Below, in pieces: positions 6,755 to 23,894 of a stretch of DNA of 64,000 nucleotides. How positions within the stretch are numbered: the stretch's first letter is position 1; the number at the start of each line of letters is the position of its first letter. The position numbers and the translations under genes are program-made. The DNA is taken from IMG/VR virus record IMGVR_UViG_3300049381_000011, positions 31,942 through 95,941 of that record. One strand, given 5' to 3'. The DNA comes from a virus. Taxonomy: Duplodnaviria; Caudoviricetes. Under the pieces are notes generated by a model that had not been told where the DNA came from, searched no databases, and saw nothing but the letters and a program-made list of their open reading frames with translations.

Positions 6755-7795
6755 CTAGCTGCCCGCGCCCCTACTGCTCTTGATCTGGGCGCGGAAATCG
6801 TCAACGGACTGGGGATCCGCGGTTCCTCCTCCGGCGGGCCCGCCGCCGAATTCGCCGCCGCTGGAGACGGGTGGCACCTGCGGCGCCGGAATCAGTCCGG
6901 TGACCTTGAGCGCTGGATCTGCCTTCACGGCTGTCTCAATTGCCGTGGAGAGCTGGGTTGCGAAGTCGGCGCCAGCCGGGTCCAGCCCGGTGACGGTGTC
7001 CATGAACCGGCGTGAGTCCGTCAGCCGGTGCGGGTCCGCTTCGTGTGTTTGCGCGGCCTGCCAGATCGCCAGCTCGACCGACTTCGTCTTGAGCGTGTCG
7101 GCGGTCTGCTTCTGCTCTTTCTGGGCCTGCTTGTGCTGCTGCTGCGACTCGGTCAGCTGCCCGGCGAGCTGCTCGACACGCTGCTCCGGAGTGAGCTCCT
7201 TGTCGGCCGGCGTCGGCTTCAAGCCGAGCGACTGCGACATCGTGTCGATCAGCTGCTGCAGCTTCGTTGAGGCTTCCGCCTGCGCCGTTTCAGCGGCCGT
7301 CTTCGCCGCATGCCGGTTGTCGCCGGACTCGCGGCGCAGCTCGCCGATGTACTGCTGCACATCGGGCGGGAAATCGGTGATCGGCCGTTTCGACATCGGC
7401 ACCGTTGCTGTCGCCGGCGGGGGTTGTGGTGCCCCGGACCCGGGCTGCCCGGGCGACTGCCCGGACGCCGGGACGACCGGTGGTGCCGTTGGCGTTGGTG
7501 CCGGCGGCGGGGTGAACTGGACCCCGGGCACTCCGGCCGGTGGGGTCGGGACTGCGGCGGGAGGCGCCGACGGGGCGACGGCACCTCCCACACCCAGACC
7601 GAGCGGATCGCCTCCCGGGTCGGCTGGTGCTGCAGGCGCCGTGGGGGCCGCGGGGGCGGCTGGCGTTGCAGCGGTGCCGTCCATGGGCACCCCGTACCGT
7701 GGCCGGCGCGCTGCGGCCGCGACCGCTGTCAACGCTGTGGCTGTGGTGCGGGGGTCAGCGAGCGCGTCAGGCGCATCCGCTCGGAGCTTCAACAT
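6755..7795 (-). CDS. Capsid scaffolding protein
   Basis: Pro-rich N-terminus, ELRRES..R coiled coil, LTDSRRF, SGGEF; directly upstream of capsid; GGAGG RBS. Confidence 0.75.
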   Translation of the reverse strand: MLKLRADAPDALADPRTTATALTAVAAAARRPRYGVPMDGTAATPAAPAAPTAPAAPADPGGDPLGLGVGGAVAPSAPPAAVPTPPAGVPGVQFTPPPAPTPTAPPVVPASGQSPGQPGSGAPQPPPATATVPMSKRPITDFPPDVQQYIGELRRESGDNRHAAKTAAETAQAEASTKLQQLIDTMSQSLGLKPTPADKELTPEQRVEQLAGQLTESQQQHKQAQKEQKQTADTLKTKSVELAIWQAAQTHEADPHRLTDSRRFMDTVTGLDPAGADFATQLSTAIETAVKADPALKVTGLIPAPQVPPVSSGGEFGGGPAGGGTADPQSVDDFRAQIKSSRGAGS

Positions 7796-7850
7796 GGGTG
7801 CCCTCCCGGGGCGTTCGGCGCCCGTCAAGGGCCCGTGGCGGGTATGAGTG

Positions 7851-8045: not shown

Positions 8046-8243
8046 TCATGACTCGTGATCGATGAGCCCGGGCGCTGGCGGCCGCCAGTGCAGATAGGAC
8101 CGCATCCACGCGGACGCGAGCGGCTGCTGGCTGGCGACGTCGTACGGGCAGGCAGCGACACCGACGTTCTGCCGGCCGGCGTGCATGCCCAGGTCCCGGG
8201 CCTGTTCGAGCGCGACAGCGGCATCATCGGCAGGGGTGCTCAT
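8046..8243 (-). CDS. Small Rmf/CrpP-like protein
   Basis: ARxxGxxAG...ACPY...AWMRSY pattern; ATGA overlap with upstream gene. Confidence 0.55.
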   Translation of the reverse strand: MSTPADDAAVALEQARDLGMHAGRQNVGVAACPYDVASQQPLASAWMRSYLHWRPPAPGLIDHES

Positions 8244-9913
8244 ACGAAGTCCCTTCCGTTCGACTGCCCGGCGGTGACCTTCGCCGCCGCCGTGTCAGCG
8301 CGCCGGCCCAACACCTGCGCTTTGAACTGGGTGTAGGTCATGCGCCCATTGTCAGACCACCAGCGCAGCAGATCCTCCGACGCGTACTTGCGTGCGGTGG
8401 CCAGCGGACCGGAGAACAGCATCACCGGGTCCATCCGGATGGACTTCCCTGCCGAGTTGAGCAGATGCCCACGCGTGTCGGCTTCGGCCTGGGCGTAGCG
8501 CAGGCTCACCCACTCGTCGTACTGGCGGCGGACCGCCCGGTCGGTCGTCTCCGCGCCGCTGCGGTCGACCGCCGAGGTGGCCTGCTCGGCGCGCATCGAC
8601 GTCGGATCGATGTCGTGCACTGCGGCGTACGCCTCCACGTAGTCCATACCCCGGCCGAGGAGCTCGTCCAGGCGCCGGTCCTGTTCCGGTGTCGGCTCCC
8701 GCCACTGCGTCGGTCGGGATCTCGCTGTCTGGCTGGTGCCGCGGTCGGGTGGCCCGTACCTCAGCCGGTCATTGCGGTCGACGCCGGCGAACTCGGCCAG
8801 GTCCCGGAACGCGGTGATGAACAGTGCGGCCTGCTGGTTCTCGGTGCGGGTGTCCCACCGGTGCGCCACCTGAATGTCGGCGAGCGGTGCGGTGTCGGCG
8901 AGCCCGTACGCGTGACGCATCGCCATCGCGTACCGGTCGTGGGTGGATGGGTCACCGGCAGCGCGGTCCTTCTGCGCCTGCTCGCTGATCTCTTTCCACG
9001 TGTCCCACGGCTTCGCGACGTTCGCCGCCCGGACCGCTTTCCGCGGTACGGTCAGCCCGCCCTCATCAGCGGGTCCGCGCTGCCATTCCCGCGCGTCGAC
9101 GGGCAGGTTCCCGAACTCGGCTTCGTGCCGGTACCAGGCCAAATACCACGATGTTCGTTCCTCCACCGACATGGAGTCGGCTGCTTCGGCGGCCCGAATG
9201 TCCTTCTCGCCGGCGTCGTCGGGCAGCCCGAGCGTCCGCTGCTGCGCGGTAGTCATCCGACGTCGGTCGGGGGACGACGAGTCGGTCGTGGCGTAGCTCT
9301 GGATCAGTCCCCACTGGCCGACGGGGTTACTGACCAGTGCCGGACCCTGCGGCCCGGCGGCTTTACGCCGGTCGTGGTCCTCACGCCGGTCCATCTCGTC
9401 GACGAGGCGCTGCATCAGCGACTCATCACCAAGCTCGGTAGCGAACGAGAACACCTCGTACAGCTCGTCTTCGCCGAGGTCTTCCGGCCGTTTGTTGAAC
9501 GCGGCTGATTCGAGCGCGGCCCGCGCTGCGAGCTCCTTTTTCAGCTCGCTGCGCCGGTGGATCTCCGTCCCGTACTGCGTTCCCAGGTCGCTGCCCATGT
9601 TGGCGATGACACCGGCGAACAGTTCACTGTCGGGGACCTGTGACAGGTCCGGGCGCATCGGCGACACCACCCGGACCGGCGCCGGGTCGACGTCGGCGGC
9701 CGCCGTGCCCGACTCGACGGTCACCGGATGGTTGCGCCGCTCGGCGGGGGTGTCGGCGTTCGCCGCGGCGACCTGCGCCATGCGGCGTACCACCACGGCG
9801 GTCCGTCCGGCGAGGCCACGACCGTGGAGGGTGCCACGGCACGCGCAGACGCACGTCGTCCCGTCGGCGTTCGAGCACTCGTCGCTGTGCGGCGCCCCGG
9901 GAATCTCCGCCAT
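8240..9913 (-). CDS. Head-associated protein with CxCxC-H leader, internal repeats and a C-terminal domain resembling actinophage minor-capsid extensions
   Basis: GGAGG RBS; leader shared with 21560..22603; C-term AEADTRGHLLN...LFSGP...KYASEDLLRWW. Confidence 0.7.
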   Translation of the reverse strand: MAEIPGAPHSDECSNADGTTCVCACRGTLHGRGLAGRTAVVVRRMAQVAAANADTPAERRNHPVTVESGTAAADVDPAPVRVVSPMRPDLSQVPDSELFAGVIANMGSDLGTQYGTEIHRRSELKKELAARAALESAAFNKRPEDLGEDELYEVFSFATELGDESLMQRLVDEMDRREDHDRRKAAGPQGPALVSNPVGQWGLIQSYATTDSSSPDRRRMTTAQQRTLGLPDDAGEKDIRAAEAADSMSVEERTSWYLAWYRHEAEFGNLPVDAREWQRGPADEGGLTVPRKAVRAANVAKPWDTWKEISEQAQKDRAAGDPSTHDRYAMAMRHAYGLADTAPLADIQVAHRWDTRTENQQAALFITAFRDLAEFAGVDRNDRLRYGPPDRGTSQTARSRPTQWREPTPEQDRRLDELLGRGMDYVEAYAAVHDIDPTSMRAEQATSAVDRSGAETTDRAVRRQYDEWVSLRYAQAEADTRGHLLNSAGKSIRMDPVMLFSGPLATARKYASEDLLRWWSDNGRMTYTQFKAQVLGRRADTAAAKVTAGQSNGRDFV

Positions 9914-9926
9914 GCTGGCCTGCCTC

Positions 9927-11126
9927 CTACGTGCTGGTCGGAAGATGCTCGGGGATGCCCAGGAGCGCGGCACGGTCGTTGACCCGGCCAGCCGGGGGGA
10001 TGATCCCGGCGCCGATCTGCTCCCGGTAGTGGACCCGGGTGAGTTTGTGGCGACGGATGTGAGCGGCCATCTCGGCGTCCCATACGGCGATCCGGTTGAG
10101 GGCCTGGCGGTGCGCCTGGTCGGTCAGCGACGTGAGCGCCATCTCGCGCCAGTGACGCAGCGTCCGTTCGATCTCACGCTGCCGGGCCCGGGCGGTGTTC
10201 CCGTCGGGGTCGGCGGTCCGGCCGGCTTTGATGAGCAGCGACACCCCCGGCCGGTACGACCGGATGGTGTGCAAACAGTTGGGGTGCATGAGCCCGGCGG
10301 CCATCGCCTGGTCGAGCGTCGCGACGACGTTGACGGTGACGGCGACACCGGTCCGGGCGTGCGGGACCTGCTGCCAGCCTGTCGGCCCCCACAAGGCGAG
10401 CACCTGCTGTTCCCACGGCCTGCAGCGCGGGCATTCGCCCGGACGATCGTCGACGGACACCAGCCGGACGCCGGCGGCAGTGAACTCGTCGACGAGGCCA
10501 ACGATCGCGGCGCGGTGAACAGCGGTCCGGACCGACATGTCCACGTAGGTGTGCAGGCGCAGCTGCCGGCCGTCGCTGGTCGTGAACGTCGTGATGCCGC
10601 GGGCGGCGAGCGCCGACCAGGCGGCCTGCGCGGCTTGCCTAGTTGTGACGGCGCCGGACAGGCGGCGCGCTGCAGCGCCGGCGACAGCACGCCGGTACAC
10701 GTCGATGGTGCGGGGCAGGATCGCCGCGTGAAGCGGCCGGAGCTCCTGGACGGTTGCGTCGGCGAGCGCCTGGATTGCTGCGGAGCCGCGGCGCGCTGCA
10801 GCACCGGCTGGTAGGCCTGCGGGGCGGATGGTGGGGGAGCCGTACGCCGCGAGCTCCGCGACGGCGTCGTGCGCTCCGGAGCGCCAGCCGGCGGCGATCG
10901 CGGCCCGGACCTCGCGGCCGCTGGCGAGGGTCAGCGAGACGGCGATTTTCTGCGCGTCTCGGCGTAGGGCGTGGATTTGATCGAGGCGGGTTTTCTGCCA
11001 GTCGGTGGCGTCGAGTCCCAGCGCGAGCCGGTCGGTGATCGCGCGGAGGAGCGCTGTTTCGCCTTCGCGGTAGATCGACGCTGTCGTGGCGGCGATCGCG
11101 GCCACATTGTGCATGTCAACCGGCAT
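9927..11126 (-). CDS. Phage minor capsid protein (MuF-like)
   Basis: YVDMSVRTA, ECPRCRPWE, GLMHPNCLH, QREIERTLRHW, REQI motifs. Confidence 0.85.
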   Translation of the reverse strand: MPVDMHNVAAIAATTASIYREGETALLRAITDRLALGLDATDWQKTRLDQIHALRRDAQKIAVSLTLASGREVRAAIAAGWRSGAHDAVAELAAYGSPTIRPAGLPAGAAARRGSAAIQALADATVQELRPLHAAILPRTIDVYRRAVAGAAARRLSGAVTTRQAAQAAWSALAARGITTFTTSDGRQLRLHTYVDMSVRTAVHRAAIVGLVDEFTAAGVRLVSVDDRPGECPRCRPWEQQVLALWGPTGWQQVPHARTGVAVTVNVVATLDQAMAAGLMHPNCLHTIRSYRPGVSLLIKAGRTADPDGNTARARQREIERTLRHWREMALTSLTDQAHRQALNRIAVWDAEMAAHIRRHKLTRVHYREQIGAGIIPPAGRVNDRAALLGIPEHLPTST

Positions 11127-11150
11127 CCAACACCCCGTTAAAGCGGATAT

Positions 11151-11230
11151 GACATGTTGACGATTTACCGCTTTCCGGTTAATGTAAAGACACCCGGGCG
11201 CTGGAACGCCCACCACGACCAGGAGGAACC
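11151..11230 (+). promoter_or_regulatory. Shared promoter (TTGACG-17-TAATGT) plus CTGGAA hairpin and RBS
   Basis: Matches copies at 27089, 29967 and 63935. Confidence 0.75.
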
Positions 11231-11232
11231 CC

Positions 11233-11586
11233 ATGGCACGTGAACTCAGCCCCCTCGCCCAGGCCGCGAAGACCGTCCGGGCGCAGATCAAGGTCGACCG
11301 GGCCGCAGGCAAGTACGAAGGCCTGCCCGCCGAGGTGAAGATCTCCGTACGGTCCGAGACCGCGAGCATGTACTCCAACCTGGCCATCGACCTGAGCGGC
11401 GTCCCCATCCAGTGGGGATGGGAGCACGGCGGCAAACCCGCGCCGGCGCTGAAGAAGATCGCTGAGGCGCTCGCCGACCTGGGTCGCGAGCACGCACCCT
11501 CGCACTCCTGGGTGAGCGTCACCGAAGACGACGCGCTGAGCCTCGCCAGCCGCTACATGGAGGGATGGCAGCCCGGTCGGGACTGA
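11233..11586 (+). CDS. Hypothetical moron-like protein
   Basis: Own promoter, AGGAGG RBS and terminator; opposite strand to head genes. Confidence 0.7.
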   Translation: MARELSPLAQAAKTVRAQIKVDRAAGKYEGLPAEVKISVRSETASMYSNLAIDLSGVPIQWGWEHGGKPAPALKKIAEALADLGREHAPSHSWVSVTEDDALSLASRYMEGWQPGRD

Positions 11587-11590
11587 CCGT

Positions 11591-11638
11591 CACGTCAGGC
11601 GCCCTGGGCTGAACGTCTGGCCTGGGGCGCCTGACGTG
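11591..11638 (+). terminator. Hairpin terminator
   Basis: cacgtcaggcgccc...gggcgcctgacgtg. Confidence 0.6.
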
Positions 11639-11721
11639 TCAGCACTGGCCACGTTATTCCGATTTATCGCCAGACGGAAAGTGTGAGACTACATACAGCG
11701 TCCCACGTAAGGAGCAAAGCA

Positions 11722-12843
11722 ATGCCCGATCCATACATGCGAATTGATGACCTGTTCAGTCCGGCGCTGCTCGCCGCGTCACTCGCGACTGGTCACGTCC
11801 GTCAACAGCTCCACCCGACCGAACCCCTGGCGATCCTCAACTACACCGAGATCTGCCAGTACACGAACGTGTGGGACGAGGTGACCTTCGCCTGCCGTGG
11901 CCTGATCTTCAACACCCAGACCCGCCAGATCGTCGCCCGCCCGTTCCCGAAGTTCTTCAACCACGGCCAGACCGGCGCCCCCGACATTCCGCTGAACGCT
12001 GCCGTCGAGGTGACCGACAAGGCCGACGGCAGCATGGGCATCCTGTACGAGCTGCCCTCCGGCGGCCACGCGATCGCGACCCGGGGCTCGTTCACCTCCG
12101 ACCAGGCGCTACACGCGACCGAGGTGTGGGACACCCGCTACATCGACCAAGTCACGCCGCTGCCCGGCACCACCGCACTATTCGAGATCATCTACCCGGC
12201 GAACCGGATCGTTGTCGACTACCGCGACGTCGACGACCTGGTCCTGCTCGGCGGAGTACAGATCGCCGACGGCATCAACCTGTCACCACAGATCATGCGA
12301 GCGGCGATCGGCTGGACCGGCCCGCTGATCGCCGTCATGCCCTACGCGACCCTCGCCGAGGCGCTCGCCGCCGAACCCCGCCCGAACAGCGAGGGCCTCG
12401 TCGTCACCTGGCCCGGCGGCGGCTGGTCACGGGTGAAGGTCAAGCAGGAGGACTACGTCCGGCTGCACCGCATCGTCACCGGCCTGACAGCCCGGGTCAT
12501 CTGGGAGCACCTGGCCCAGGGCCTGCACCTGCTGGAGCTGATCGCCGGCCTGCCCGACGAGTTTCACGCCTGGGCCCGCGCCGTCGCCGACTCGCTGGAG
12601 TCCGAGGTCCAGGACCACCACGAACGGATCACGAAGGAATACGCGGGGATCATCGACGAGATGCGGTACGCCGAAACGCTCGAGCGCCGTGACTTCGCCG
12701 ACCGGGTCGCTGACCACCCCGACAAGTGGGCGTTGTTCTTCCTCCTGGACCAGCGTGACATCCGCCCTGGTCTGTGGCAGATGGTCCGTCCGGCGGCGGG
12801 GTGGACACCGTCAGGGCGCACGTACAGCGACGCCGTAGCCTGA
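11722..12843 (+). CDS. T4 Rnl1-family RNA ligase
   Basis: CRGLI, RPFPKFFN, motif I KADGS, ATRGSF, FEIIYPANRIVVDY, EGLVV, KVKQEDY. Confidence 0.9.
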   Translation: MPDPYMRIDDLFSPALLAASLATGHVRQQLHPTEPLAILNYTEICQYTNVWDEVTFACRGLIFNTQTRQIVARPFPKFFNHGQTGAPDIPLNAAVEVTDKADGSMGILYELPSGGHAIATRGSFTSDQALHATEVWDTRYIDQVTPLPGTTALFEIIYPANRIVVDYRDVDDLVLLGGVQIADGINLSPQIMRAAIGWTGPLIAVMPYATLAEALAAEPRPNSEGLVVTWPGGGWSRVKVKQEDYVRLHRIVTGLTARVIWEHLAQGLHLLELIAGLPDEFHAWARAVADSLESEVQDHHERITKEYAGIIDEMRYAETLERRDFADRVADHPDKWALFFLLDQRDIRPGLWQMVRPAAGWTPSGRTYSDAVA

Positions 12844-12877
12844 CCCACCTGGCAGCCCGACCGCCACCCCCACGGGG

Positions 12878-14539
12878 CTACGGTCGGGCTTCGTCGTCTG
12901 CCGGCCCGGGCCCGGGCTCGCCTGGCTTGCCGGGTGCGGTGTCGCCGGCGACACCGGTGCCTGGGTCGGCAACCGGCGGCGGGGCGTCCTCCTCACGGAT
13001 CCGGATCACCTCCTGCTCGATCTTCTTCGCATCCCAGTCCGGATGCAGCCTGCTGACAAGGGTGTGGACGGACGCGGCCCGGGCGCTGGCGAGCAGCTGC
13101 AGCGTTGTCGCCTCCTGCTGCGGGTCGACCGCCACCCCGTCCGGCCAGTTGACCTTCGGCATCGCGGCGACCATGCCGTCCTTGCCGAACTGTTTGATGT
13201 CGATTTCCTGCATGGCGTAGGCCAGCCGGGCGATCGGCCCCCGCGCGTACAGGAGTTTCTTTCCCCTGGTCCGGTACGAGGCTGCCTCCCGCGCGACCAC
13301 TTCCGTTGCTGTCGCGGCGACCTCGTCAGCCTCACCGAACGTTTGCGTGGAGTAGCCGGATCCGCGCAGGATCTGCGCCACCAGCTGCGTGCACGTACGG
13401 TCGTGCTGCTCGACTCTGATTTCAAACTGGACGTGCTCCAGCTTCATGCCGCCTTCGGTGGAGTCGATCAGGTCGACGCCGGTGAAGACCTCCTGCTCCA
13501 GGTCAAACGTCGCGCCGGCGCCACGACCAGCGGTCCGTAGGTAGGACTTCGGGACGATGATCCTGCCCTTGCCCAGGCGCAGGTCACGCATCCATGACGT
13601 CCACGCCTCGTCGAGGGCGTCCATGAGCGGCTCGACACCCTGGTAGTCCGACCGGCCCAGCGGCGACCCGCGCAGAATCCGGTTCGGGCGCATGTTCGGC
13701 AGGTACTCGACTGCCATACCGGTAGCACCGGTCACGATCGTCGTCCCGTCGGCCGGGTCGACGAGCAGAGCGAACGCCGTCGTTTCCGGATGCGCGGTCA
13801 GCGGCATCCGATGGCCGAGTTTCCCCTCGTCCGTCGACCTGTACAGAGCGTGTTGGACCTGGGCGGCGCGGTGGTATTCGAGGTGGCGCCACCAGTACTT
13901 GCTGTCGGTGCCCTCCAGCCGTTCCAGATGCCGCCAGAACGTCACCCCGACGAGCTGCTGGCCACGCCACTCCGGCACAGCAGCGTCAGGTGGGATCGCG
14001 TCGAGCAGCGGATGCGCGGCGACGACCGGGTCCCAGCGGACGCGTAGGTAGGCGCCGCCGTACGCCGCGGCGATCTCGCCAGCCTCCAACCAGATCGCCT
14101 GCGCGTTGGCCAGTTCCAGGATGTCGTTCAGCCGGTCTTTCGTCGGGTTCGTTGCCGGGCCCGCATCATCGTCCGGTTCCTCGCCGCCCAGCGTGGGGAA
14201 CAGGAATTCGGGTGGCTCACCGAACAGCAGGTCCGCGGACGTTGCCGCGACGTCACCGGCGAGCGGGATGTGGAGCTTGTGCTGTTTGGTTGATCCGGCG
14301 CCGGGTGGGCTGCCCCAGAACCGGCGCTGGATCCCGCGGGCGATCGCCGTCACGAACCGGGCGCCGGCCGGCTGCCCGGTCGGGAGCTCGCTACCGGGCC
14401 CGAACCCTGGCGTGTCCTGGTAGACGGCGGCGAGCTCTTCCGGGTCGCCGCCGTACCAGGCACCCCATTGCGCGTACAGCTTGTTCGCCGCGGCCGTCGA
14501 CGGCGGTGGCCACGCGACGTTAGTGACGGGCAGCGGCAT
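12878..14539 (-). CDS. Phage portal protein
   Basis: KLHIPLAGDVAATSADLLFGEPP, LGRSDY, LDEAWTSWMRDLRLGKGRIIVP, TATEV. Confidence 0.9.
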   Translation of the reverse strand: MPLPVTNVAWPPPSTAAANKLYAQWGAWYGGDPEELAAVYQDTPGFGPGSELPTGQPAGARFVTAIARGIQRRFWGSPPGAGSTKQHKLHIPLAGDVAATSADLLFGEPPEFLFPTLGGEEPDDDAGPATNPTKDRLNDILELANAQAIWLEAGEIAAAYGGAYLRVRWDPVVAAHPLLDAIPPDAAVPEWRGQQLVGVTFWRHLERLEGTDSKYWWRHLEYHRAAQVQHALYRSTDEGKLGHRMPLTAHPETTAFALLVDPADGTTIVTGATGMAVEYLPNMRPNRILRGSPLGRSDYQGVEPLMDALDEAWTSWMRDLRLGKGRIIVPKSYLRTAGRGAGATFDLEQEVFTGVDLIDSTEGGMKLEHVQFEIRVEQHDRTCTQLVAQILRGSGYSTQTFGEADEVAATATEVVAREAASYRTRGKKLLYARGPIARLAYAMQEIDIKQFGKDGMVAAMPKVNWPDGVAVDPQQEATTLQLLASARAASVHTLVSRLHPDWDAKKIEQEVIRIREEDAPPPVADPGTGVAGDTAPGKPGEPGPGPADDEARP

Positions 14540-14711
14540 CGTCCGTCGTCTCCTTGCGTCGCTTGCGGCCGGTCATCATGCGGTGGCGGTAGCGCCACGA
14601 GTACGACCCGGTGTCCTCGTCACGGATGAGCTGGAATTCGGGTTTGCAGTCGCATTTGTCGTTCGCGCGATGCTGGCCGGCTTCCGCGTACGGGATGTAG
14701 TGAGCCGTCAT
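14520..14711 (-). CDS. Small hypothetical protein (CxC)
   Basis: MTAHYIP...HRANDKCDCKP; overlaps portal start. Confidence 0.45.
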   Translation of the reverse strand: MTAHYIPYAEAGQHRANDKCDCKPEFQLIRDEDTGSYSWRYRHRMMTGRKRRKETTDDAAARH

Positions 14712-14799
14712 CACCCCTACCCGCCCTTCGTGTACGCGGTTTGAGCTGCAAAAACGGCCCCAGCGGTCTGCTGGAGCCGTCAGGTCGGTCGGGTGTGGC

Positions 14800-15057
14800 T
14801 TAGACGTGCGCGGGACACCAGGCCGTGTGTGAGCCGCCGGCTGCTCGCGCGTCGGTTTCGGTGTCGTACAGGGCCACCGACGTCCGCCACTCCGGGACAT
14901 CCGCGGAGTCGCTGATCACGCGTACGTTGACGGTCCAGGAGCCGTCGGTGCGCTGGCTCCAGACGCGTGTGACCAGCGCGAGCGCTTCCTCCGCGCCGTT
15001 GTTCTTCTGGGCGTCCATCGGGACGATGACTTTCTGGCCGAGGCTGGGTGTCCGCAC
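14800..15057 (-). CDS. Small phage hypothetical protein
   Basis: PSLG..V...ALVTRVW...VNVRV...WRTSV; AGGAG RBS. Confidence 0.6.
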   Translation of the reverse strand: MRTPSLGQKVIVPMDAQKNNGAEEALALVTRVWSQRTDGSWTVNVRVISDSADVPEWRTSVALYDTETDARAAGGSHTAWCPAHV

Positions 15058-15282
15058 AGTGCTCTCCTACGTTGGGTGCGCCGACGTTCGGCGCGGGTCG
15101 GTACGGTGATGTCGTGGCCAGCCGAGTACAGATACAGCAGCAATTCGGCTTGTGGTGTGTGACCTGGGTCGAGCCCCGCCATGGCAGGCCGTGCCGCTTC
15201 TGGCAGTGGCACCGGTCGCAGACGATCGCCTACGACCACGCCGGCGAGCTGATCGCACAGGCGTCCAGCGGGGCGCCGGCTG

Positions 15283-15600
15283 TCAGTTGACGATCGTCCA
15301 GTCGTCGGCGAGGAGGTCCGAGATCGTCGGCACCCACGGGCAGAACGAGCCGTCGGCGGTGGCCAGCATCAGGTACGGGCGGAACACGCAGACGGTGCCC
15401 TCCGGGATACCGGTCGCCTGGGCGGTGTTCCCGTTGATCGCGATCCCGTCCGGGTAGCCCTTCTGCAGCACCACCCACTGACCGGGGCCGTTCCAGCTGG
15501 CCCGGGACACTTTGGACCCTGACTTCAGCTCGGCGAGCGCGTACGAGAAGTCGAGCTCGGCTGGCCGCTTGTTGGCTGGGTCGGGAAAGCTGTGGTCCAT
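15283..15600 (-). CDS. tad2: DUF2829 / Tad2-family anti-defence nucleotide-sponge protein
   Basis: FSYAL..LKSG.KVSR.SWNG...PYL...PWVPT..DLLADDW. Confidence 0.8.
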   Translation of the reverse strand: MDHSFPDPANKRPAELDFSYALAELKSGSKVSRASWNGPGQWVVLQKGYPDGIAINGNTAQATGIPEGTVCVFRPYLMLATADGSFCPWVPTISDLLADDWTIVN

Positions 15601-15678
15601 GGCGGGCGGGCCTTTCGTGATGGGATCCGACAGTCAGCCACCGGAGGCGGCCGCGACGGCGGGCAATAGGTTGGGCTG

Positions 15679-15942
15679 ATGGAGCACACGCTGAACGTCG
15701 AACTTGCCCGGATGAGCCGGCATGGCTGGCGGGTCGATCAGCGGTACGGGGCGCAGGCGACCGTGTCCAGGCCGACGCTGTGGCTGCCTACCTGGGTGCA
15801 CCTGCTGCTGATCGTGCCGACGTGCATGGTCTGGGCTGTGGTGTGGGCGTGGATGCGCAGCACAGGTATGCGTCGCACGTCCAGGCTCGTGACCGTGTTG
15901 CAGCCCGGTCGGGTGACGGTGACGTCGGTCCCGTCGTCGTAG
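15679..15942 (+). CDS. Small membrane protein
   Basis: Hydrophobic HLLLIVPTCMVWAVVW segment. Confidence 0.55.
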   Translation: MEHTLNVELARMSRHGWRVDQRYGAQATVSRPTLWLPTWVHLLLIVPTCMVWAVVWAWMRSTGMRRTSRLVTVLQPGRVTVTSVPSS

Positions 15943-15950
15943 CCGGCCGG

Positions 15951-16298
15951 TTAGCCCTGCAGCTCGTACGCGGTGATTTCCAGCTCGGCGTGCGCGACGT
16001 CGACGAGCAGGTAGCCGCCGTACAGGTTCGCTGGGTACGGACCGAACCGGATCGTTTTCCCCGCGGCGATCGGGGTGATCTTCGGTTCGATGCCTTGGCC
16101 GTCGGATCCGCCGAGGAGGTGGATGGTCACGGACCGGGCGGTCACCCCGCCGTTGGTGTTCTCGACGTCGATGAACATCCGCCCCCGGTTGGGGATCTTG
16201 TGGCCGTCGGCGGGGACGCCCACGGTCGCGACGACGGTGGACAGGTCCAGGCCGTCGGTCCGGTCGACGACGTACGGGGTGATCGTTCCGCGTGCCAT
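15951..16298 (-). CDS. Beta-rich hypothetical protein, possibly virion-associated
   Basis: GGAGG RBS; IRFGPYPANLY. Confidence 0.6.
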   Translation of the reverse strand: MARGTITPYVVDRTDGLDLSTVVATVGVPADGHKIPNRGRMFIDVENTNGGVTARSVTIHLLGGSDGQGIEPKITPIAAGKTIRFGPYPANLYGGYLLVDVAHAELEITAYELQG

Positions 16299-16363
16299 TT
16301 CGTACCTCCACTGATGTAAATGATCTGTTGACACTTGGCGGGACGTAAACGTATGATTTAGCT

Positions 16364-16579
16364 ATGATTTCCGCTGGAACGGTAAGTCTGATCACCCCGG
16401 CCAGGAACGCACCCGCGGCCGCTCACGGCAGCTGCGCCCACTGCATCTGCAACCCGCAGGCCAACCGTGGCCACCACTGCCACCAGGCCGGCTGCACCGC
16501 CTGCACCATCGGCTGCCCCGACGCCGGCGACGACGCCGGCTGCATCCGCGCACACGAAACGGTGACCATCCCGGCCTGA
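16364..16579 (+). CDS. Small Cys/His-rich hypothetical protein
   Basis: Seven Cys; TTGACA/TATGAT promoter-like sequence immediately upstream. Confidence 0.35.
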   Translation: MISAGTVSLITPARNAPAAAHGSCAHCICNPQANRGHHCHQAGCTACTIGCPDAGDDAGCIRAHETVTIPA

Positions 16580-16640
16580 CCTAGGCCCTGTCACACCGGG
16601 GGCGTAAAGATGTCATTTACGCCCCCGGTCAAGGAGCACC

Positions 16641-17006
16641 ATGGCAAAACGCATCGAAACGAGCCCCGACATCGCCCGGGCCGCCGGCGGGTACCTGCGC
16701 GCCAACGGCCTGGGCGACAACGCCGAAACAGCCATCCCCGCAGTCGCCACGCGAATCACTGACTACCGCCCGGAAGCGGTCCCAGACAAGTCGGTCACGC
16801 TGTCCGCGCTCGCCCTGCTGTCCGAGATCCGCACCGTGTACGACCGGCGCGAGCTGGTCCTGATCGACCACGCCCGCCAGCTGGGCGCCACATGGGACGA
16901 GATCGGACGGATGCTCGGCTACAACCCGACCATCCAGGGCGCCGCACAGCGCCGTAAGACCCTCGCCGAGCTCTACCTCCAGGAGGTCACCAGTGAGCAC
17001 CACTGA
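16641..17006 (+). CDS. HTH DNA-binding protein
   Basis: ARQLGATWDEIGRMLG...QGAAQR; AAGGAG RBS; cgtaaa..tttacg palindrome upstream. Confidence 0.7.
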   Translation: MAKRIETSPDIARAAGGYLRANGLGDNAETAIPAVATRITDYRPEAVPDKSVTLSALALLSEIRTVYDRRELVLIDHARQLGATWDEIGRMLGYNPTIQGAAQRRKTLAELYLQEVTSEHH

Positions 17007-17535
17007 CAACCTTTTCGCACCGTCACCCGAACCGGCCTTCCGCGCCCGGACCGACGTCCAGGCCACCGTCGACCGGATCATCGCGCTGATGAAGCCCGAC
17101 GGCTCCGGCTTCACCGAACGCCAGGTGCCGGGCTACTCCTTCACCGACCGCGTACCCGACCCGCTGCTCGCCATCCAAGCGGCGCAGCTCGTCCGTGACT
17201 ACGCCAGCTCCTACATCGACCGGGCAGCCCTGCTCGCCCGCCGGGAAGGCACGTCGTGGGCCGACCTGTTCACCCTGCTCGCGCTGGAAGCCGTCGACGG
17301 GAAGTCCACGGCGGAGGTTGCCTACGAGCACGTCCTAGGACCGGATCCGGAACACCAGCCGCTGTGGCAGACACGCACTGTGTCGTGGCACTGCTCAACC
17401 TGCAGCGCGTACGTCACCGACCGGGGACCGTACGAAAGCCACCCCGACGACAACGAAAGCGGCCACACCGCTGACTGCACCCGACACCAGACCGCGATCG
17501 CCGAGTGGCGCGTACGCACCGGATGGGAAGACTGA
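16993..17535 (+). CDS. Hypothetical protein (HTH-like segment plus CxxC)
   Basis: ARREGTSWADL; WHCSTC; AGGAGG RBS. Confidence 0.65.
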   Translation: MSTTDNLFAPSPEPAFRARTDVQATVDRIIALMKPDGSGFTERQVPGYSFTDRVPDPLLAIQAAQLVRDYASSYIDRAALLARREGTSWADLFTLLALEAVDGKSTAEVAYEHVLGPDPEHQPLWQTRTVSWHCSTCSAYVTDRGPYESHPDDNESGHTADCTRHQTAIAEWRVRTGWED

Positions 17536-17852
17536 TGTTCGGACAGACACGCCGCGAGGCGGCAGAAGCCGAACTCGAGCGCGAGCGCCAGGCCGTGGAG
17601 CGGCAGGAGCGGGACGCGCGAGATGAGGAGAGGCGAGCCGAAGCTAGACGCACTCAGGAAGCCCAGGCCGCCGAGCATGCAGCCAAGATCCAAGCGCGCA
17701 TCGCAGAGGTTCTAGCGCTTACCCCTGAGGAGCACATTCAGCGGGCCGCCAATTGGTCAGCCGAGCCCTTCAGCAGCGACCATGTGATCAAAGTCCAGAA
17801 CGCGATCCAGACCGAGCTCCTGTGGGCGCTCGTGAAACGACGCAGCTCATGA
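17535..17852 (+). CDS. Coiled-coil hypothetical protein
   Basis: TGATG coupling; E/R/A-rich. Confidence 0.6.
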   Translation: MFGQTRREAAEAELERERQAVERQERDARDEERRAEARRTQEAQAAEHAAKIQARIAEVLALTPEEHIQRAANWSAEPFSSDHVIKVQNAIQTELLWALVKRRSS

Positions 17853-17895
17853 CCGACGTACAGCGGATGACATCGACAATCCGGCTCCTCCGTGC

Positions 17896-18180
17896 ATGGC
17901 GACCACAGCTCTCGTATGTGCTGGGATCGGCTTAGCGTGCCTCGCCTTCTCGGTCGTCTTCACCGTGATTGCGGGCAGCTCACCGCGATGGATCTGGTAC
18001 GCCCAGATATCCACCACGGTGGTCCTGGCGTTCCTCATCCCGCTGGTGTACAGGAAGCGTCGCCAGCTGATCGTCCAGCTGCAGGAGCTCGACAAGACGC
18101 CGCAGCTCGACAAGACGGCTTATCAGGGCGGCGAGGCTCGCGTGCAACCAAGGCGTCGACCGTCAGCACTCAGGGGCTGA
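17896..18180 (+). CDS. Two-TM membrane protein
   Basis: Two hydrophobic segments. Confidence 0.5.
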   Translation: MATTALVCAGIGLACLAFSVVFTVIAGSSPRWIWYAQISTTVVLAFLIPLVYRKRRQLIVQLQELDKTPQLDKTAYQGGEARVQPRRRPSALRG

Positions 18181-18241
18181 TCATGCACGTAACCGACACC
18201 GTCAACAACGATCCCGACCAGATGGCAACCGAGGAGCGACC

Positions 18242-18691
18242 GTGACCAAAACGACCTACACCGGCGAACAGATGAGAGACCTACTGGTTGCCGGCAGCCT
18301 CTGCCAGGGCCGCCACGTCCAGGCCGCTGTACACCTGCTGCTTTTCACCGACCTCCACACCCGACCCTGGTTCGCCGAGATCGTTGAGATCGGCCCCGGC
18401 GGCGCCGGCGGGGCGTTGCTCGAGTGCGCATTCGTCAACTGGACGGATCTGCCCAACCGGATCGATCCTCGACTCGGATCCGGCACGGTCAACCTGATCA
18501 ATCTCGCCGTAGCGTTCGCCGACCGTCAGCAGATCGATATCGCTGCTGCGGTCACCAGCCACGGACACGCGCACGCGCGCCGGATCGCTGAGGCGGTCTT
18601 GATCCTGGCCGGCTACCAGGACTGGTACACGCTGCAGCCCGGCCCGGACCTCGTCGAGCACCAGCGCTTCACCGAGGAGCTGCTCGGATGA
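18242..18691 (+). CDS. Hypothetical protein
   Basis: GAGGAG RBS; coupled with next gene. Confidence 0.65.
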   Translation: MTKTTYTGEQMRDLLVAGSLCQGRHVQAAVHLLLFTDLHTRPWFAEIVEIGPGGAGGALLECAFVNWTDLPNRIDPRLGSGTVNLINLAVAFADRQQIDIAAAVTSHGHAHARRIAEAVLILAGYQDWYTLQPGPDLVEHQRFTEELLG

Positions 18692-19104
18692 CCCACGCAA
18701 TCGAGTGTGTCGACGACGACCACGCGGTCGACCTGGCCGCGGTGCTCCGCGATGAGTACCACTACCGCAACGTCCGGGTGGAGAACGCCACCGTCTACGC
18801 GGACCGGTTCGCTGTAGACGAAACCAGCGACACCCTGGTCACATATGCGATCGCGTACGGCTACGCGCCGAAGCCTGCCGAGCCGGTCCAGCTGGGTCCG
18901 TTCGAGGAAGACAAGCCGGACCCGTCGCAGCCCATGACCATGGGGCATGTCCGCGCGTGGGTTGCGGCCCGGTCGCACATCCCGGACGACTACCACGTCG
19001 ACGCGTCGCTGGTCGAGTTTCCTCGCAGCTGGGCTCGGGGCAACCCGTTCTACACGAACGTCCTGCTGAACCTCCACACGCCAGACCCGGCGGAGCTCAT
19101 CTAA
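18688..19104 (+). CDS. Hypothetical protein
   Basis: ATGA overlap; terminator follows. Confidence 0.6.
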   Translation: MTHAIECVDDDHAVDLAAVLRDEYHYRNVRVENATVYADRFAVDETSDTLVTYAIAYGYAPKPAEPVQLGPFEEDKPDPSQPMTMGHVRAWVAARSHIPDDYHVDASLVEFPRSWARGNPFYTNVLLNLHTPDPAELI

Positions 19105-19106
19105 AA

Positions 19107-19149
19107 CGGTGGGGTTCGGGGCGATCCGTAAGCGCCCCGAACCCCACCG
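19107..19149 (+). terminator. Perfect 17-bp hairpin
   Basis: cggtggggttcggggcg...cgccccgaaccccaccg. Confidence 0.65.
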
Positions 19150-19191
19150 ATCATCACATCCCGAACCGCCGACTATCCAGGGAGTACCGAA

Positions 19192-19644
19192 GTGACGAAG
19201 ATCAAAGACGCTGAGGAAGTCGTCAGCGAGCTGCACCCCTATTTCGAATGGTCCGCGAAGCACTCCAGCTCGGCGGCCGCGACGATCGCCGAATTGGTTC
19301 GCTACCTCAACCACGCCACCGAGCATCCCGAGGCAGTACCGCTGCCTCAGGATGTTGGCGCCATCCTCTACCAGCTCGGCACCACCCTGGAGCGGCTGCC
19401 GCAGACTCTCTGGCAGCTCGGCCAGCTGGTACGGAAGCATGCCGACAACCCGGCGCTGGCCAGTAGCGGGAGCCCTGAGCGGATGAAAGGGCATGCCGCG
19501 GCTGAATGGGCGTTGGTGGTCGCGGCCAGGCTGCGCGACACGCAGCGCGACACTCAGCTGAAGGACATCGGCAAGCAGTTGAAGCGGCTCGGCTGGGATG
19601 CCGAGTATCTGCACCTGACGGTATCCGACGACGAGGAGGTGTGA
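19192..19644 (+). CDS. Hypothetical helical protein
   Basis: GGGAG RBS; AELVRYLNHAT. Confidence 0.65.
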   Translation: MTKIKDAEEVVSELHPYFEWSAKHSSSAAATIAELVRYLNHATEHPEAVPLPQDVGAILYQLGTTLERLPQTLWQLGQLVRKHADNPALASSGSPERMKGHAAAEWALVVAARLRDTQRDTQLKDIGKQLKRLGWDAEYLHLTVSDDEEV

Positions 19645-19647
19645 TCC

Positions 19648-19944
19648 ATGACCGGCAGCACGGAGCGTGACACCGTGGTGGGCGACAAGCTGGCTGCGCT
19701 ACGCGGCAGCACCGACGCGGTGATCTGGCCGATCGAACCCGCCAGCCCCTGGCCTGGCCAGCCGATGGCGATCGCCATGCTCTGGCTCGCTGTCGCGGTT
19801 GCTGCCATCCTGGCGATCCGCGAGGTGCCGAGCAGCGCGACAGTCGACTTTTGGACCGCGTTCACGCTCGGTGCGGTCAGCGCGGCGCTGGCGTTCGTGA
19901 CCGTCCGGTTCGTGGCGCTGGTCGTCCGGCAGGTTCGGTCGTGA
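19648..19944 (+). CDS. Two-TM membrane protein
   Basis: GGAGG RBS; hydrophobic segments. Confidence 0.55.
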   Translation: MTGSTERDTVVGDKLAALRGSTDAVIWPIEPASPWPGQPMAIAMLWLAVAVAAILAIREVPSSATVDFWTAFTLGAVSAALAFVTVRFVALVVRQVRS

Positions 19945-20133
19945 CCGGCGGGTAGGTCGCGCGTCGCCCGTGGCGCTCGGTGGTAACGTGCGAGACGCCG
20001 ACCTGCTGGACCTGGAAACCGCCTTCATCGCTTACGCGTTGGGGGCGGTTTTCGCGTACGTGAAAAGGTTTCACCCGACCATAAGAGTCATTATGATGTA
20101 AGGTTTTCGCGAATCACGTTCGCGTTTGGTGGG

Positions 20134-20370
20134 TCAGTCGACCGGCTCGGACTCGGACGCAGCGTCGTCCAGAACGAACTGGAGGGTGTACTTCTGACCC
20201 GGCTCGAACAGATCGCCGACGGCACCCTTGACCGTCATGGACAGTGACAGCGACGGAGTGGCGGCCGCCCATTCCTGGTTCGCGCCGTCCGCGTAGTTCG
20301 GGGCAAACGACAGGTTGACCTGATCGCCATACGGGCTCTTGGTCTGGCACTGAACTTTCGCGGTGATCAT
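20134..20370 (-). CDS. Small phage hypothetical protein
   Basis: GAGGAG RBS; NQEWAAATPS...FEPGQKY. Confidence 0.65.
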   Translation of the reverse strand: MITAKVQCQTKSPYGDQVNLSFAPNYADGANQEWAAATPSLSLSMTVKGAVGDLFEPGQKYTLQFVLDDAASESEPVD

Positions 20371-20452
20371 GCTGCTACTCCTCTGTTCTCGAACGCTGCT
20401 CGCGTCCGTCGGTCATGGGACAGAAAACTCGCCGTGCGTCGGCCGGCCCCGG

Positions 20453-20776
20453 TCACCGCGGGATTCTCGTGAGGAATCCGCGTGGCGGCGCGGCAGCGTC
20501 GTCGTCGACGTCGACCGGGCGCAGTAGCCGGCGGCCCGTCTCGCCGAGCGCGACCCGGGCGGCGAACGTCAGCCCGTCGTCGAACTGTTCCTCATCGTGC
20601 AGACCGGCATAGCCGGGGTCGCGGTGCTCCCGGATGTCGCTGGCGATCTGCCGGCGCAGGTGCCGCAGCTCGCCTCTGGCGCGCTGGCGCCCGATGAACA
20701 GCAGCGCGATCACAGCGCCGGTGCCGAGCGGCAACACCAGGTGGTTCATAACCCACCAGAACAGGCCCACGTTCAT
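20453..20776 (-). CDS. Single-TM hypothetical protein
   Basis: GAGG RBS; N-terminal TM. Confidence 0.55.
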   Translation of the reverse strand: MNVGLFWWVMNHLVLPLGTGAVIALLFIGRQRARGELRHLRRQIASDIREHRDPGYAGLHDEEQFDDGLTFAARVALGETGRRLLRPVDVDDDAAAPPRGFLTRIPR

Positions 20777-20785
20777 CTCACCTCG

Positions 20786-21073
20786 TCAGACCGTCGACCC
20801 GACCACGGTGTAGGGCACCGCGTCGTCCGATGACACCAGTCGGATCGACGCCGCGTTCACGTCGAGATTCGCGACCCGCAGCCGGACCCGTTCGCCGGCG
20901 AGGACCGGGTACATGTCATCGGCGGCCGCTACCGGTGTGCTGCCGTCGACCGTCACCCAGATCGTGGCGGCCGCGGACCGGTTGATGATCTCGGCCCATC
21001 CTCCGTGCTGGACGATCGGCACCGTGACGGCGACGGTGGCGGCGAGGGTTCCGGACTTCGCGCGGGCTGCCAT
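20786..21073 (-). CDS. Beta-rich hypothetical protein, possibly virion-associated
   Basis: IINRS...IWVTVDGSTP. Confidence 0.55.
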   Translation of the reverse strand: MAARAKSGTLAATVAVTVPIVQHGGWAEIINRSAAATIWVTVDGSTPVAAADDMYPVLAGERVRLRVANLDVNAASIRLVSSDDAVPYTVVGSTV

Positions 21074-21095
21074 GGCGGGGCCTTTCGCTGGTGGG

Positions 21096-21383
21096 CTATC
21101 CGAGGTTCGTACGCCGCGGTGTAGCGCGCTCGGTTTCGATCGCGTCGATCTGCGCCTGGTCGGCGCCGGCGGCGAGCAGCAGCTCGCGCATGCGCGGTCC
21201 GGGCCATTGGTCGGGGGTGTTCGCTGCGGCGTGTGACAGCAGATGCACATCGGTGCTGATCGCGCGGAGGACCGAGGTCGGGTAGTCCGGGGGGACGTCG
21301 GTCAGGGCTGCGATCCGGTGGGCGGATCCGACCAGCTGGGCGACGGTCACGCGTTCGGCTTTGCGGTGCCGGGCGATCTCCAC
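21096..21383 (-). CDS. Hypothetical protein
   Basis: GTG start in co-directional cluster. Confidence 0.5.
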   Translation of the reverse strand: MEIARHRKAERVTVAQLVGSAHRIAALTDVPPDYPTSVLRAISTDVHLLSHAAANTPDQWPGPRMRELLLAAGADQAQIDAIETERATPRRTNLG

Positions 21384-21393
21384 ACCGGCGACT

Positions 21394-21570
21394 TTACGCG
21401 TCGATCGGGGTCCGGCTCTCCAGCTGGACGAGCAGCTGGCGAGCCGCGGGCGGCATCTGCTCGAACGTGTTGATGCCGGAGACACCGGCGCGGATCTGCA
21501 GGCGTTCGGCGACGGTGGCGCGGCCGTTGGTCATCGCGTCGGACGCGCGTCGCCATAGCTCAGGGGTCAT
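21394..21570 (-). CDS. 58-aa protein coupled to ART-like gene (candidate immunity/partner)
   Basis: Manual translation MTPELWRRASDAMTNGRATVAERLQIRAGVSGINTFEQMPPAARQLLVQLESRTPIDA; overlaps upstream stop by 11 nt; GGAGG upstream. Confidence 0.55.
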   Translation of the reverse strand: MTPELWRRASDAMTNGRATVAERLQIRAGVSGINTFEQMPPAARQLLVQLESRTPIDA

Positions 21571-22603
21571 ATCGGTCGCTCGCCTCCTCGATCATCAGTA
21601 CCGTCCGGTTGAAGATGATCACCTGGTCGGCGTTCTGCTCATCCGTGACGTCGTCAGGATAGTAGGCGCCGTCACCCTCGGAGTCCTCACCCTTGATGTG
21701 CACACCATCGTAGCCGCGCATGACCGCGTACCAGGAACTGTCCGATGCGGTGCTGAACCACTTCCAGGCGTCCGCGTCCTGGGTGTCCAGCCAGGCTCGG
21801 TGCTCGCGCTGCAGCTGCACAAAGTCGATGATCTTGGCGTCCGGGTCGATGGCCATCCGCATGAGACCGCCAGGGTTGCCGCCGTACGAGGTGACGAGGT
21901 CACCTGCCCACTCCCGCAGCCCGTCGGGTTCCCATCTGCCCTGGCCTTCGTACGGCCCGCTGCGGCTCATCATGATCGCCGGTTCGTGGCCGCGGTAAAC
22001 CTCGGCTGTCGACCTGCGGGGGGATGTGTAGATCCCGTTGCCGTAGATCCCTTTGCCCATCTCCCAGGCACCGGTCCGCGTTGCTTCGGACATCTCAACG
22101 GCCTTGAGGTCACCCGCGCCGGAAACGCCACGCCACACCTGCGACCAGCCGTTCGCGATCGCCGTGTCGAGCTCCTCAGGCGAGACGACACGCGCCGGAT
22201 CACTCCAGCCGGTCTGGCGGCGCACGAGCGCTGTCAGGAGCTTGTCGCCATGCGGGGCCGGGTCGCGTTTCGCGTCGGAGACCAGCGTGTCGAAGTCGTC
22301 GGCAGCCCGGTCCTCAATGTCACGGCCGGCGTGCCGGTTGCTCTTCCCTGCGACCTGCGCGGTCCGCACGGCGACAGCGTCCTGCCTGCGGTTCGTGGCG
22401 TCGAGCCGGACCGGGTCCCGGCGACGCTGCGCCGGCGTGGTCGTCGACGCTTCGGCCCGCATTTTGGCCATGCGGCGCAGGAGCGCACCGTCACGGCCTG
22501 GCTTGCGGACACCGTGGAGGGTGCCACGGCACGCGCAGACGCACACGGTGCCGTCGGCGTCGCCGCAGATGTCGGTGTGGGTGCCGCCGGCGATCTCAGA
22601 CAC
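21560..22603 (-). CDS. CxCxC-H leader protein with ADP-ribosyltransferase-like C-terminal domain
   Basis: WRG, GIYGNGIYTS, AEVY, GYDG, QVIIFN motif order of ART folds; GGAGG RBS. Confidence 0.65.
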   Translation of the reverse strand: MSEIAGGTHTDICGDADGTVCVCACRGTLHGVRKPGRDGALLRRMAKMRAEASTTTPAQRRRDPVRLDATNRRQDAVAVRTAQVAGKSNRHAGRDIEDRAADDFDTLVSDAKRDPAPHGDKLLTALVRRQTGWSDPARVVSPEELDTAIANGWSQVWRGVSGAGDLKAVEMSEATRTGAWEMGKGIYGNGIYTSPRRSTAEVYRGHEPAIMMSRSGPYEGQGRWEPDGLREWAGDLVTSYGGNPGGLMRMAIDPDAKIIDFVQLQREHRAWLDTQDADAWKWFSTASDSSWYAVMRGYDGVHIKGEDSEGDGAYYPDDVTDEQNADQVIIFNRTVLMIEEASDRYDP

Positions 22604-22627
22604 GCCAGCCTCCGCACAGTGGGGTTC

Positions 22628-23050
22628 TTACAGGAGGACGAAGACCTCGTCGACGGCGAGGAGTCCGGCGTCGGACGGGTGCGGGTCGTGGACCAGGCGC
22701 AGGTCCATGTCGACGATGACGACGTGCTGCCATGGTCCGCGTGGTGACGGGCCGGAGCCGATGACCCAGCGGTCGACGTCCGGGTCGACGAAGGCATGCC
22801 GGACGTCGCCGTCGACGACGGGCACGCACACGAACTTGCGGCCGCGGCCGGTGGCCCAGGCGCACATGTCGTCCCACCACGATTCGCCGGCAGCGGCGAA
22901 GTGGGGCACCTGGTCGTAGTCGACGCCGGCGAGCGACGCGACTGCGGCTCGGAGGCAGTCCCCGGGTTGGCCGTCGGCGTTGTGGCCGTCGCCGCGGCCG
23001 GGGTCGGCGATGATGCGCTGGCGGATGAGGAGGGTTGCTGTGGTGGCCAT
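22628..23050 (-). CDS. Putative papain-like (Cys-His-Asp) protein
   Basis: GDCLRAAVASL...HVVI...VHDPHP. Confidence 0.5.
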   Translation of the reverse strand: MATTATLLIRQRIIADPGRGDGHNADGQPGDCLRAAVASLAGVDYDQVPHFAAAGESWWDDMCAWATGRGRKFVCVPVVDGDVRHAFVDPDVDRWVIGSGPSPRGPWQHVVIVDMDLRLVHDPHPSDAGLLAVDEVFVLL

Positions 23051-23241
23051 GGCTACCGCTCGCCCCAGGTGTACATGGCGCCGGCGAGCCGGTCGACCAT
23101 CCGCCAGCTGCGCCGCTCCCACCGTTCGGTCCGGTGACGGTGCAGGCAGTCGTTGAGGCCGGTGAGCAGCAGACCGAGGCGTGCGATCCGGGGTAGTGGC
23201 GGCCGCGGCGGGCAGCTCTGGCACATGTCAACACTCCACAC

Positions 23242-23278: not shown

Positions 23279-23309
23279 AGCTGGTTGGCGATCGAGATTG
23301 GACACCGCG

Positions 23310-23477: not shown

Positions 23478-23488
23478 AGGGCCCGACC

Positions 23489-23890: not shown

Positions 23891-23894
23891 ACGG

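Follow-up and report, generated by a model that had tools for sequence, protein, structure and literature searches.

Proteins that phages inject are early weapons against the defences of the host, and how they come to be inside the capsid has been worked out in only a few model phages, such as T4 and P1. In T4, the capsid targeting sequence is a linear peptide of approximately ten residues, which binds the scaffolding core and is cut by the prohead protease after loading. In P1, an N-terminal signal of 30 residues or fewer suffices to load the large anti-defence protein DarB, or a reporter, into the capsid (PMC9024508). In the MuF polymorphic toxins (Jamet et al. 2017, PMC5576092) and the phage polyvalent proteins (Iyer et al. 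2017, PMC5512222), the effector lies within the MuF or portal polypeptide itself. Here, we describe a 64,000-nucleotide stretch of DNA from an uncultured phage (bases 31942-95941 of the 95.9-kb IMG/VR virus record IMGVR_UViG_3300049381_000011; the whole stretch is called the window below) in which, by contrast, the MuF-like protein is short and standalone, and each cargo, P0001 and P0002, is encoded by a separate gene, one of them approximately 10 kb from MuF. Both cargo proteins begin with the same Cys/His module, which we call the leader.

The reading that we favour, and to which we give an even chance of being right, is that the leader serves as a tag for non-covalent docking or packaging and has taken the place of the covalent MuF and portal fusions. 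Under this model, a canonical actinophage MuF-like protein, consisting of a MuF domain, helical repeats and a C-terminal domain, would have been split in this clade, and the leader would tether cargo that resides inside the head, and is probably ejected, to the machinery of head assembly (MuF, portal or scaffold). The leader would thus stand in for the covalent MuF or portal fusion and would let cargo genes be swapped or moved. P0001 would be the ancestral cargo, that is, the C-terminal half of MuF, while P0002 would be a newer one, with a toxin-type domain of ADP-ribosyltransferase (ART) fold and a leader acquired from P0001 within the lineage. P0004, encoded by a short open reading frame (ORF) coupled to P0002, would have come with the ART-fold domain and would likely act as its neutraliser in the producing cell. 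A tag that replaces a MuF fusion predicts that homologues of its cargo should be fused to MuF or portal elsewhere, and such fusions are described below.

The two cargo ORFs translate as the preliminary description of this DNA had it, and they share their beginning before diverging fully, as BLASTP aligns only residues 1-68 of P0001 with residues 1-69 of P0002 (52% identity, E 9e-20). The 34-bp stretch that had been reported as identical in both genes is seen in a DNA alignment, and each gene does overlap a small ORF (P0001/P0003 as ATGA, P0002/P0004 by 11 nt). This run is the longest identical one among 91 leader pairs (the next is 23 and the median 9), and the chance of eleven identical codons is ~0.02, given a probability of 0.71 that the same residue is encoded by the same codon. 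The run is only modestly above background, provides no evidence of nucleotide-level constraint, and fits the leaders of P0001 and P0002 being mutual closest relatives (55% identity). The degenerate DNA pattern of the motif matches twice in the window, against 0.00 matches expected from shuffles, and two is also the number of leaders in the whole phage genome. Additionally, a GGAGG ribosome-binding site is located a few bases 5′ of both the P0001 and the P0002 start.

A leader profile built from both window copies was searched against 1.84 billion representative proteins, which gave 19 matches, and in the 15 best, which were examined, the module is N-terminal on proteins of 132-1437 amino acids (aa). 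Across the clade, the leader is approximately 65-80 residues long. Ten of its positions are invariant in all 14 leaders taken from DNA references (M1, H9, C13, A16, C21, C23, C25, G27, H30 and G31), and these include six potential metal ligands with fixed spacing (H9, C13, C21, C23, C25 and H30), which probably form a small metal (zinc) site. Profile searches returned no relative of the leader in Pfam, PHROGs, NCBIfam or PDB, and tblastn against 50,697 cultured phage records returned no match to the leader or to three small motif-bearing proteins. PDB sequence and profile searches with P0001, P0002 and the alignments of the leader, the cargo, the C-terminal domain and MuF yielded nothing meaningful. 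For the leader alone, every score in the ESM Atlas was below 0.9, which is uninformative, and a predicted complex of MuF, the leader and two Zn scored 0.00; the leader fold is itself uncertain in that prediction, which counts neither way on binding.

The preliminary description proposed a search for varied C-termini near MuF or portal genes, and the profile search found them. The leader is present in twelve uncultured phage contigs, where the same module heads four classes of cargo (A-D) in related phages, and in 11 of these 12 contigs the leader gene is directly 3′ of a short MuF-only gene. The exception is L004, where glycosyltransferase genes lie upstream of the leader gene. Between one and three separate leader genes follow the short MuF gene in the clade. 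For instance, the order in L006 is MuF, P0020 (leader and HExxH motif), P0021 (leader and a 1144-aa protein), P0018 (leader and class-A C-terminus), an ORF similar to ribosome modulation factor (RMF), scaffold and capsid, and the synteny of MuF followed by a leader gene is also observed in L005, L007-L010, L022, L107 and L117.

The leaders group by cargo class, with type I on class A and type II on class B, and class-A and class-B leaders of the same genome are only 32-36% identical. Concerted evolution of all the leaders inside one genome was considered and rejected because of this low identity. The leaders of the two rarer and newer classes, D (in the window) and C (in L006), are each closest to a leader of their own genome, with 55% identity, which indicates that new cargo received its tag by local duplication.

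Class A, to which P0001 belongs, comprises most of the homologues and consists of the leader, a varying number of helical repeats and a conserved C-terminal domain of ~146 aa. In P0001, the repeats read 'GDE..DEMDRRE' and 'LGLPDDA..WY..WYR'. It had been proposed that P0001 resembles the extensions of actinophage minor capsid proteins, and its C-terminus does match the C-terminal part of MuF and protease-fusion PHROGs. The class-A C-terminal domain is present in 382 cultured actinophage records, in genes that bear the annotation MuF-like minor capsid or capsid maturation protease, and the repeats and C-terminal domain together form MuF's C-terminal half in gp9 of Mycobacterium phage KiSi and in gp17 of Arthrobacter phage LiSara. 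KiSi gp9, for instance, consists of a MuF domain, a 'GDE..DEMDR' repeat and the C-terminal domain, and is followed by a 63-aa ORF, the scaffold gene and the capsid gene. As the domain is fused to MuF in the cultured phages, all of which lack the leader, P0001 appears to be a split MuF-like protein's C-terminal half, with the leader located at the apparent former site of the covalent link to MuF. Pfam detects no MuF domain in P0001 or P0002, the N-terminus of both being the leader and MuF a separate gene. The idea that both leaders carry interchangeable effectors is retained in that the leader heads varied cargo, but P0001 is better read as a detached C-terminal half of MuF than as an effector. 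Additionally, no similarity was found by BLASTP between P0001 and the scaffold-like protein. In the class-A leader gene of L004 (IMG/VR contig 3300044712_000982), there is an in-frame TAG at 7026-7028, where homologues have Trp (YDE-W-V), after which the C-terminal domain continues in frame; readthrough may account for it, as may a nonsense mutation or a sequencing error.

The MuF gene itself matches Phage_min_cap2 (PF06152) with 163.5 bits (Pfam cut-off 26.3) when taken as 9927..11522. This longest ORF (531 aa) has an N-terminal extension of 132 residues that is absent from all six orthologues aligned with it, and the true start is most likely at 11126, which gives 399 aa. Thus, one leader gene does lie directly behind a MuF-like gene, as had been stated, with a gap of 13 nt, but the start of the MuF ORF had to be corrected. 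In all seven MuF genes of the clade that were aligned (those of the window and of L005-L010), the product is 384-403 aa long and has the Phage_min_cap2 domain only.

Class D comprises P0002 and is found in this window only. Residues 88-347 of P0002 have 50% identity (E 3e-74) with the C-terminus of P0029, a 643-aa Phage_Mu_F protein encoded between portal and capsid genes, and the class-D domain is, in general, 42-53% identical to C-terminal domains of MuF-containing proteins. Related copies are found at the C-terminus of MuF proteins of 747-1627 aa (P0030-P0036), several of which have a separate canonical ADPrib_exo_Tox domain. With 12 homologues aligned, AlphaFold2 gave a model of the cargo with a pLDDT of 83.8 and a pTM of 0.85; the model of full-length P0002, made with a shallow alignment, was unusable (pLDDT 49.5, and 34-49 in the leader region). 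Nearly all the top Foldseek matches of the cargo model have the ADP-ribosyltransferase fold (best E 3.8e-3), including exotoxin A, cholix toxin, diphtheria toxin, MbcT, ParT and PARP2, with VIA-align giving Z 5.3-6.5, a root-mean-square deviation of 3.7-6.8 Å and 119-146 aligned residues. In the ESM Atlas, P0002 has ART-PolyVal clusters and a MuF cluster's C-terminus among its neighbours. In a motif reading, the invariant residues of the cargo include the R in WRG, a Q and a Y-T-S segment, but neither an invariant His nor a Q/E-x-E motif is seen. A chain of the cyanophage A4 pre-ejectosome (PDB 9k3a_B; Z 6.2, 136 residues) is also one of the best structural matches, and it may represent a solved ART-like fold inside a virion.

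The remaining classes are B, formed by proteins of 530-575 aa with an HExxH motif, and C, formed by P0021 and a relative in L022, which are long proteins with no function assigned. The HExxH domain of class B shares 41% identity (E 4e-41) with the C-terminus of a portal fusion of 1166 aa, which has a Phage_portal domain, and is also found in a protein with a sub-threshold MuF match, a NUDIX domain and a 2′-5′ RNA ligase domain.

The main alternative is that the leader is a general Cys/His domain with a role of its own (binding of nucleic acids or of a partner, oligomerisation, or sensing of metals or redox state), exerted in the cytoplasm or after delivery, any packaging being due to other elements, such as the class-A C-terminal domain. 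The 23-residue core of the leader (H-x3-C-x2-A-x4-CxCxC-x-G-x2-HG) was searched in public contigs by means of a degenerate DNA pattern, which is found in 96 metagenome, 55 genome and 6 viral stretches, with every translated stretch in frame. Among the 153 core-motif matches, 134 have a possible start codon within 12 residues upstream, and their constant spacing is a consequence of how matches were selected. Tails with 60 aa or more fall into 29 unrelated clusters from bacteria, archaea, candidate phyla radiation bacteria and viruses (L015-L170). The largest one has 54 members, which are helical proteins of ~280-340 aa from actinobacterial genomes and metagenome contigs, and the members examined from Actinomadura, Streptosporangium and Microbacterium adjoin integrase/RepSA, transposase or superfamily 1 helicase genes. 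By motif reading, some other tails are TIR-like or ParB-like, and the cellular motif-bearing proteins have no match in Pfam or NCBIfam. This core motif is, by itself, not capsid-specific.

A general domain is what these 153 matches on at least 29 unrelated C-terminal families would suggest, together with the location of cellular copies in mobile-element and helicase contexts with no capsid genes nearby, and with the presence of the class-A C-terminal domain in those 382 phages that have no leader at all. However, the extended leader of the phages (~65-80 aa, with RRM and ERRxHPV, or PPGGGT, segments) is found only in MuF-linked head modules. Moreover, classes B, C and D lack the class-A C-terminal domain, yet homologues of B and D are fused to portal or MuF, and cargo of these two classes would thus need another route into the head. 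Taking both sides together, we consider a general domain of this kind a possible, though rather unlikely, explanation. The proposal that the leader is a detachable tag receives support from the covalent fusion of cargo homologues to MuF (A and D) or portal (B) elsewhere, but it has to accommodate the occurrence of the core motif outside capsid contexts.

Several points weigh against the leader being a packaging tag. The core motif is N-terminal on many cellular proteins and, hence, the core has a function that needs no capsid. Within the window, P0002 is located between the terminase and portal genes, at the distance from MuF mentioned above, and class-A proteins carry a widespread MuF C-terminal domain that is possibly itself the capsid-binding element. 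As regards the ART-fold cargo, the fold matches are middling (Z < 8), the Pfam ART models do not match P0002, PF18760 has no match in the whole phage genome even with E up to 10, and neither a canonical catalytic triad (R-S-E or H-Y-E) nor the Glu is evident in the cargo by motif reading. The preliminary term 'ART-like' is, in consequence, valid for the modelled fold of P0002 only, as the model matches agree with it while the sequence models and the catalytic triad do not. Finally, what the analysis shows is homology, modularity, synteny and the fusion partners of other phages, and it is from this comparative evidence that we infer metal binding, docking, packaging and injection.

A wider reading would combine these observations. 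The core element could be an undescribed, portable N-terminal domain and a universal adaptor that hands diverse conflict effectors (ART-fold, HExxH and, by motif reading, possibly TIR-like or ParB-like) to delivery or assembly machines in phages and perhaps other mobile elements, having become, in this phage clade, a folded, metal-dependent capsid-loading tag that replaces MuF and portal fusions. We regard this extension as speculative and unlikely.

It might also be that the leader is a pro-region or cap that keeps a toxic cargo inactive or unfolded inside the producing cell and is removed or released, for example at ERRxHPV, on assembly or ejection. There is a conserved basic motif at the end of type-I leaders, two of the cargo classes are toxin-like (ART fold and HExxH motif), and the capsid targeting sequences of T4 are cut after loading; class A, however, is not toxin-like, and P0002 already has a dedicated small partner in P0004, for which we consider this option improbable. 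The last alternative, a shared 5′ end that is only a functionless by-product of recent recombination or duplication, would agree with the 34-bp identical run and with both copies being mutual nearest relatives, but it is very improbable and close to refuted by conservation at the protein level in at least 12 contigs despite many synonymous differences, with invariant Cys/His residues and four cargo classes.

The two small ORFs had been considered together as immunity genes, which may be the case for P0004 but not for P0003. In L172 as well as L173, the ART-fold domain is followed by a P0004 homologue that overlaps it by 11 nt, and the partner is kept in all four contexts, three of them with that same overlap and the fourth as a fusion to the domain. 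Thus, P0004 is a dedicated partner whose arrangement is consistent with an immunity protein, as in the MuF toxin-immunity pairs (PMC5576092). In the fusion, P0007 (L171 5431-6330), the ART-fold domain continues in frame, at its C-terminus, into the P0004-like partner (46% identity, E 6e-11), which is unusual for a toxin-immunity pair.

P0003, on the other hand, matches PF04957 (ribosome modulation factor) with 30.0 bits (Pfam cut-off 27.9, E 5.4e-7), and its homologues in L007 and L009 have weak RMF matches. An RMF-like ORF follows all six class-A genes examined (for instance, at 10438-10680 in L006, 12311-12514 in L007 and 11237-11446 in L009), and this conservation led us to reject P0003 as an effector-specific immunity gene and to regard it as a conserved head-module gene. 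It shows no similarity to KiSi gp10 by BLASTP. Every clade member that was examined has an RMF-like gene located between its MuF-derived gene and its scaffold gene, which is unexpected in a phage head module.

The phage genome has been estimated to be 93% complete, with a guanine-cytosine content of 68% (66-72%), and the host is probably an actinobacterium. On the minus strand, the order of genes in the window is terS-like, TerL, ~10 kb of small genes (P0002 and P0004 among them), portal, an antisense RNA ligase, MuF, P0001, P0003, scaffold-like, P22-type coat and connector genes (Table 1). The gap of ~10 kb between TerL and portal (14540-24940), which is filled with mostly unannotatable small genes on both strands, is atypical for a head module. 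The antisense gene between portal and MuF (11683-12843, plus strand) codes for an Rnl1-type RNA ligase (PF09511, phrog_562), and, by megablast, nothing else in the region resembles a cultured phage at the nucleotide level (the match is to Arthrobacter phage Seahorse).

Table 1. Coordinates, within the window, of the leader copies, the cargo genes and their neighbours.
Feature	Position	Strand	Remarks
P0001, 557 aa: leader, helical repeats, conserved C-terminal domain	8240..9913	-	
Leader copy A, P0001 residues 1-70: H-x3-C-x7-CxCxC-x4-HG core, then RRM and TPAERRxHPV motifs	9704..9913	-	
P0001 C-terminal domain, ~146 aa	8243..8680	-	
P0003, 65 aa, RMF-like	8046..8243	-	ATGA overlap with P0001 stop
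P0002, 347 aa: leader and ART-fold cargo domain	21560..22603	-	
Leader copy B, P0002 residues 1-70	22394..22603	-	
P0002 cargo domain, residues 88-347	21563..22342	-	
P0004, 58 aa, conserved partner of the ART-fold domain	21394..21570	-	11-nt overlap with P0002
34-bp identical stretch, encodes (C)VCACRGTLHG	9821..9854 and 22511..22544	.	DNA alignment
Short MuF-like minor capsid gene, 399 aa, Phage_min_cap2 domain only	9927..11126	-	stop 13 nt before P0001 start
Portal gene	12878..14539	-	context
Scaffold-like gene	6755..7828	-	context; directly downstream
P22-type major capsid gene	5836..6741	-	context; directly downstream

If the favoured model is correct, a compact tag common to separately encoded cargos would explain how effectors are exchanged without rebuilding a structural protein, and the leader would be a ready handle for loading chosen proteins into actinophage particles. 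In any case, the core motif defines a widespread, unannotated N-terminal domain carried by dozens of protein families, of which many are located in mobile elements.

Compared with the systems already described, the locus shares its cargo repertoire (ART-type domains, metallopeptidases and C-terminal extensions of MuF) and its location among head-module genes with the MuF polymorphic toxins (PMC5576092) and the polyvalent proteins (PMC5512222). Like the former, P0002 has a variable C-terminal domain of toxin type, which it shares with P0029-P0036, and a small ORF just downstream. The combination of an ART-type fold with a small adjacent partner gene is also known from ParT-ParS and MbcT-MbcA, but these pairs have no sequence similarity to P0002/P0004, which belong to a phage head module and not to a chromosomal toxin-antitoxin locus, and whose partner is fused to the domain in one homologue. 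With the T4 capsid targeting sequence (PMC3012670), the leader has in common that a conserved N-terminal element is found on diverse proteins, which T4 loads into its prohead and injects together with its DNA. Here, however, the element is a module of 65-80 residues with six invariant Cys/His, known from sequence comparison and with no protease gene identified. The Dar proteins of P1 (PMC9024508), in turn, have no common consensus, while here one module recurs over several cargos and phages. The leader would thus be analogous to the T4 capsid targeting sequence and to the DarB signal of P1, but it is longer than both and probably metal-binding.

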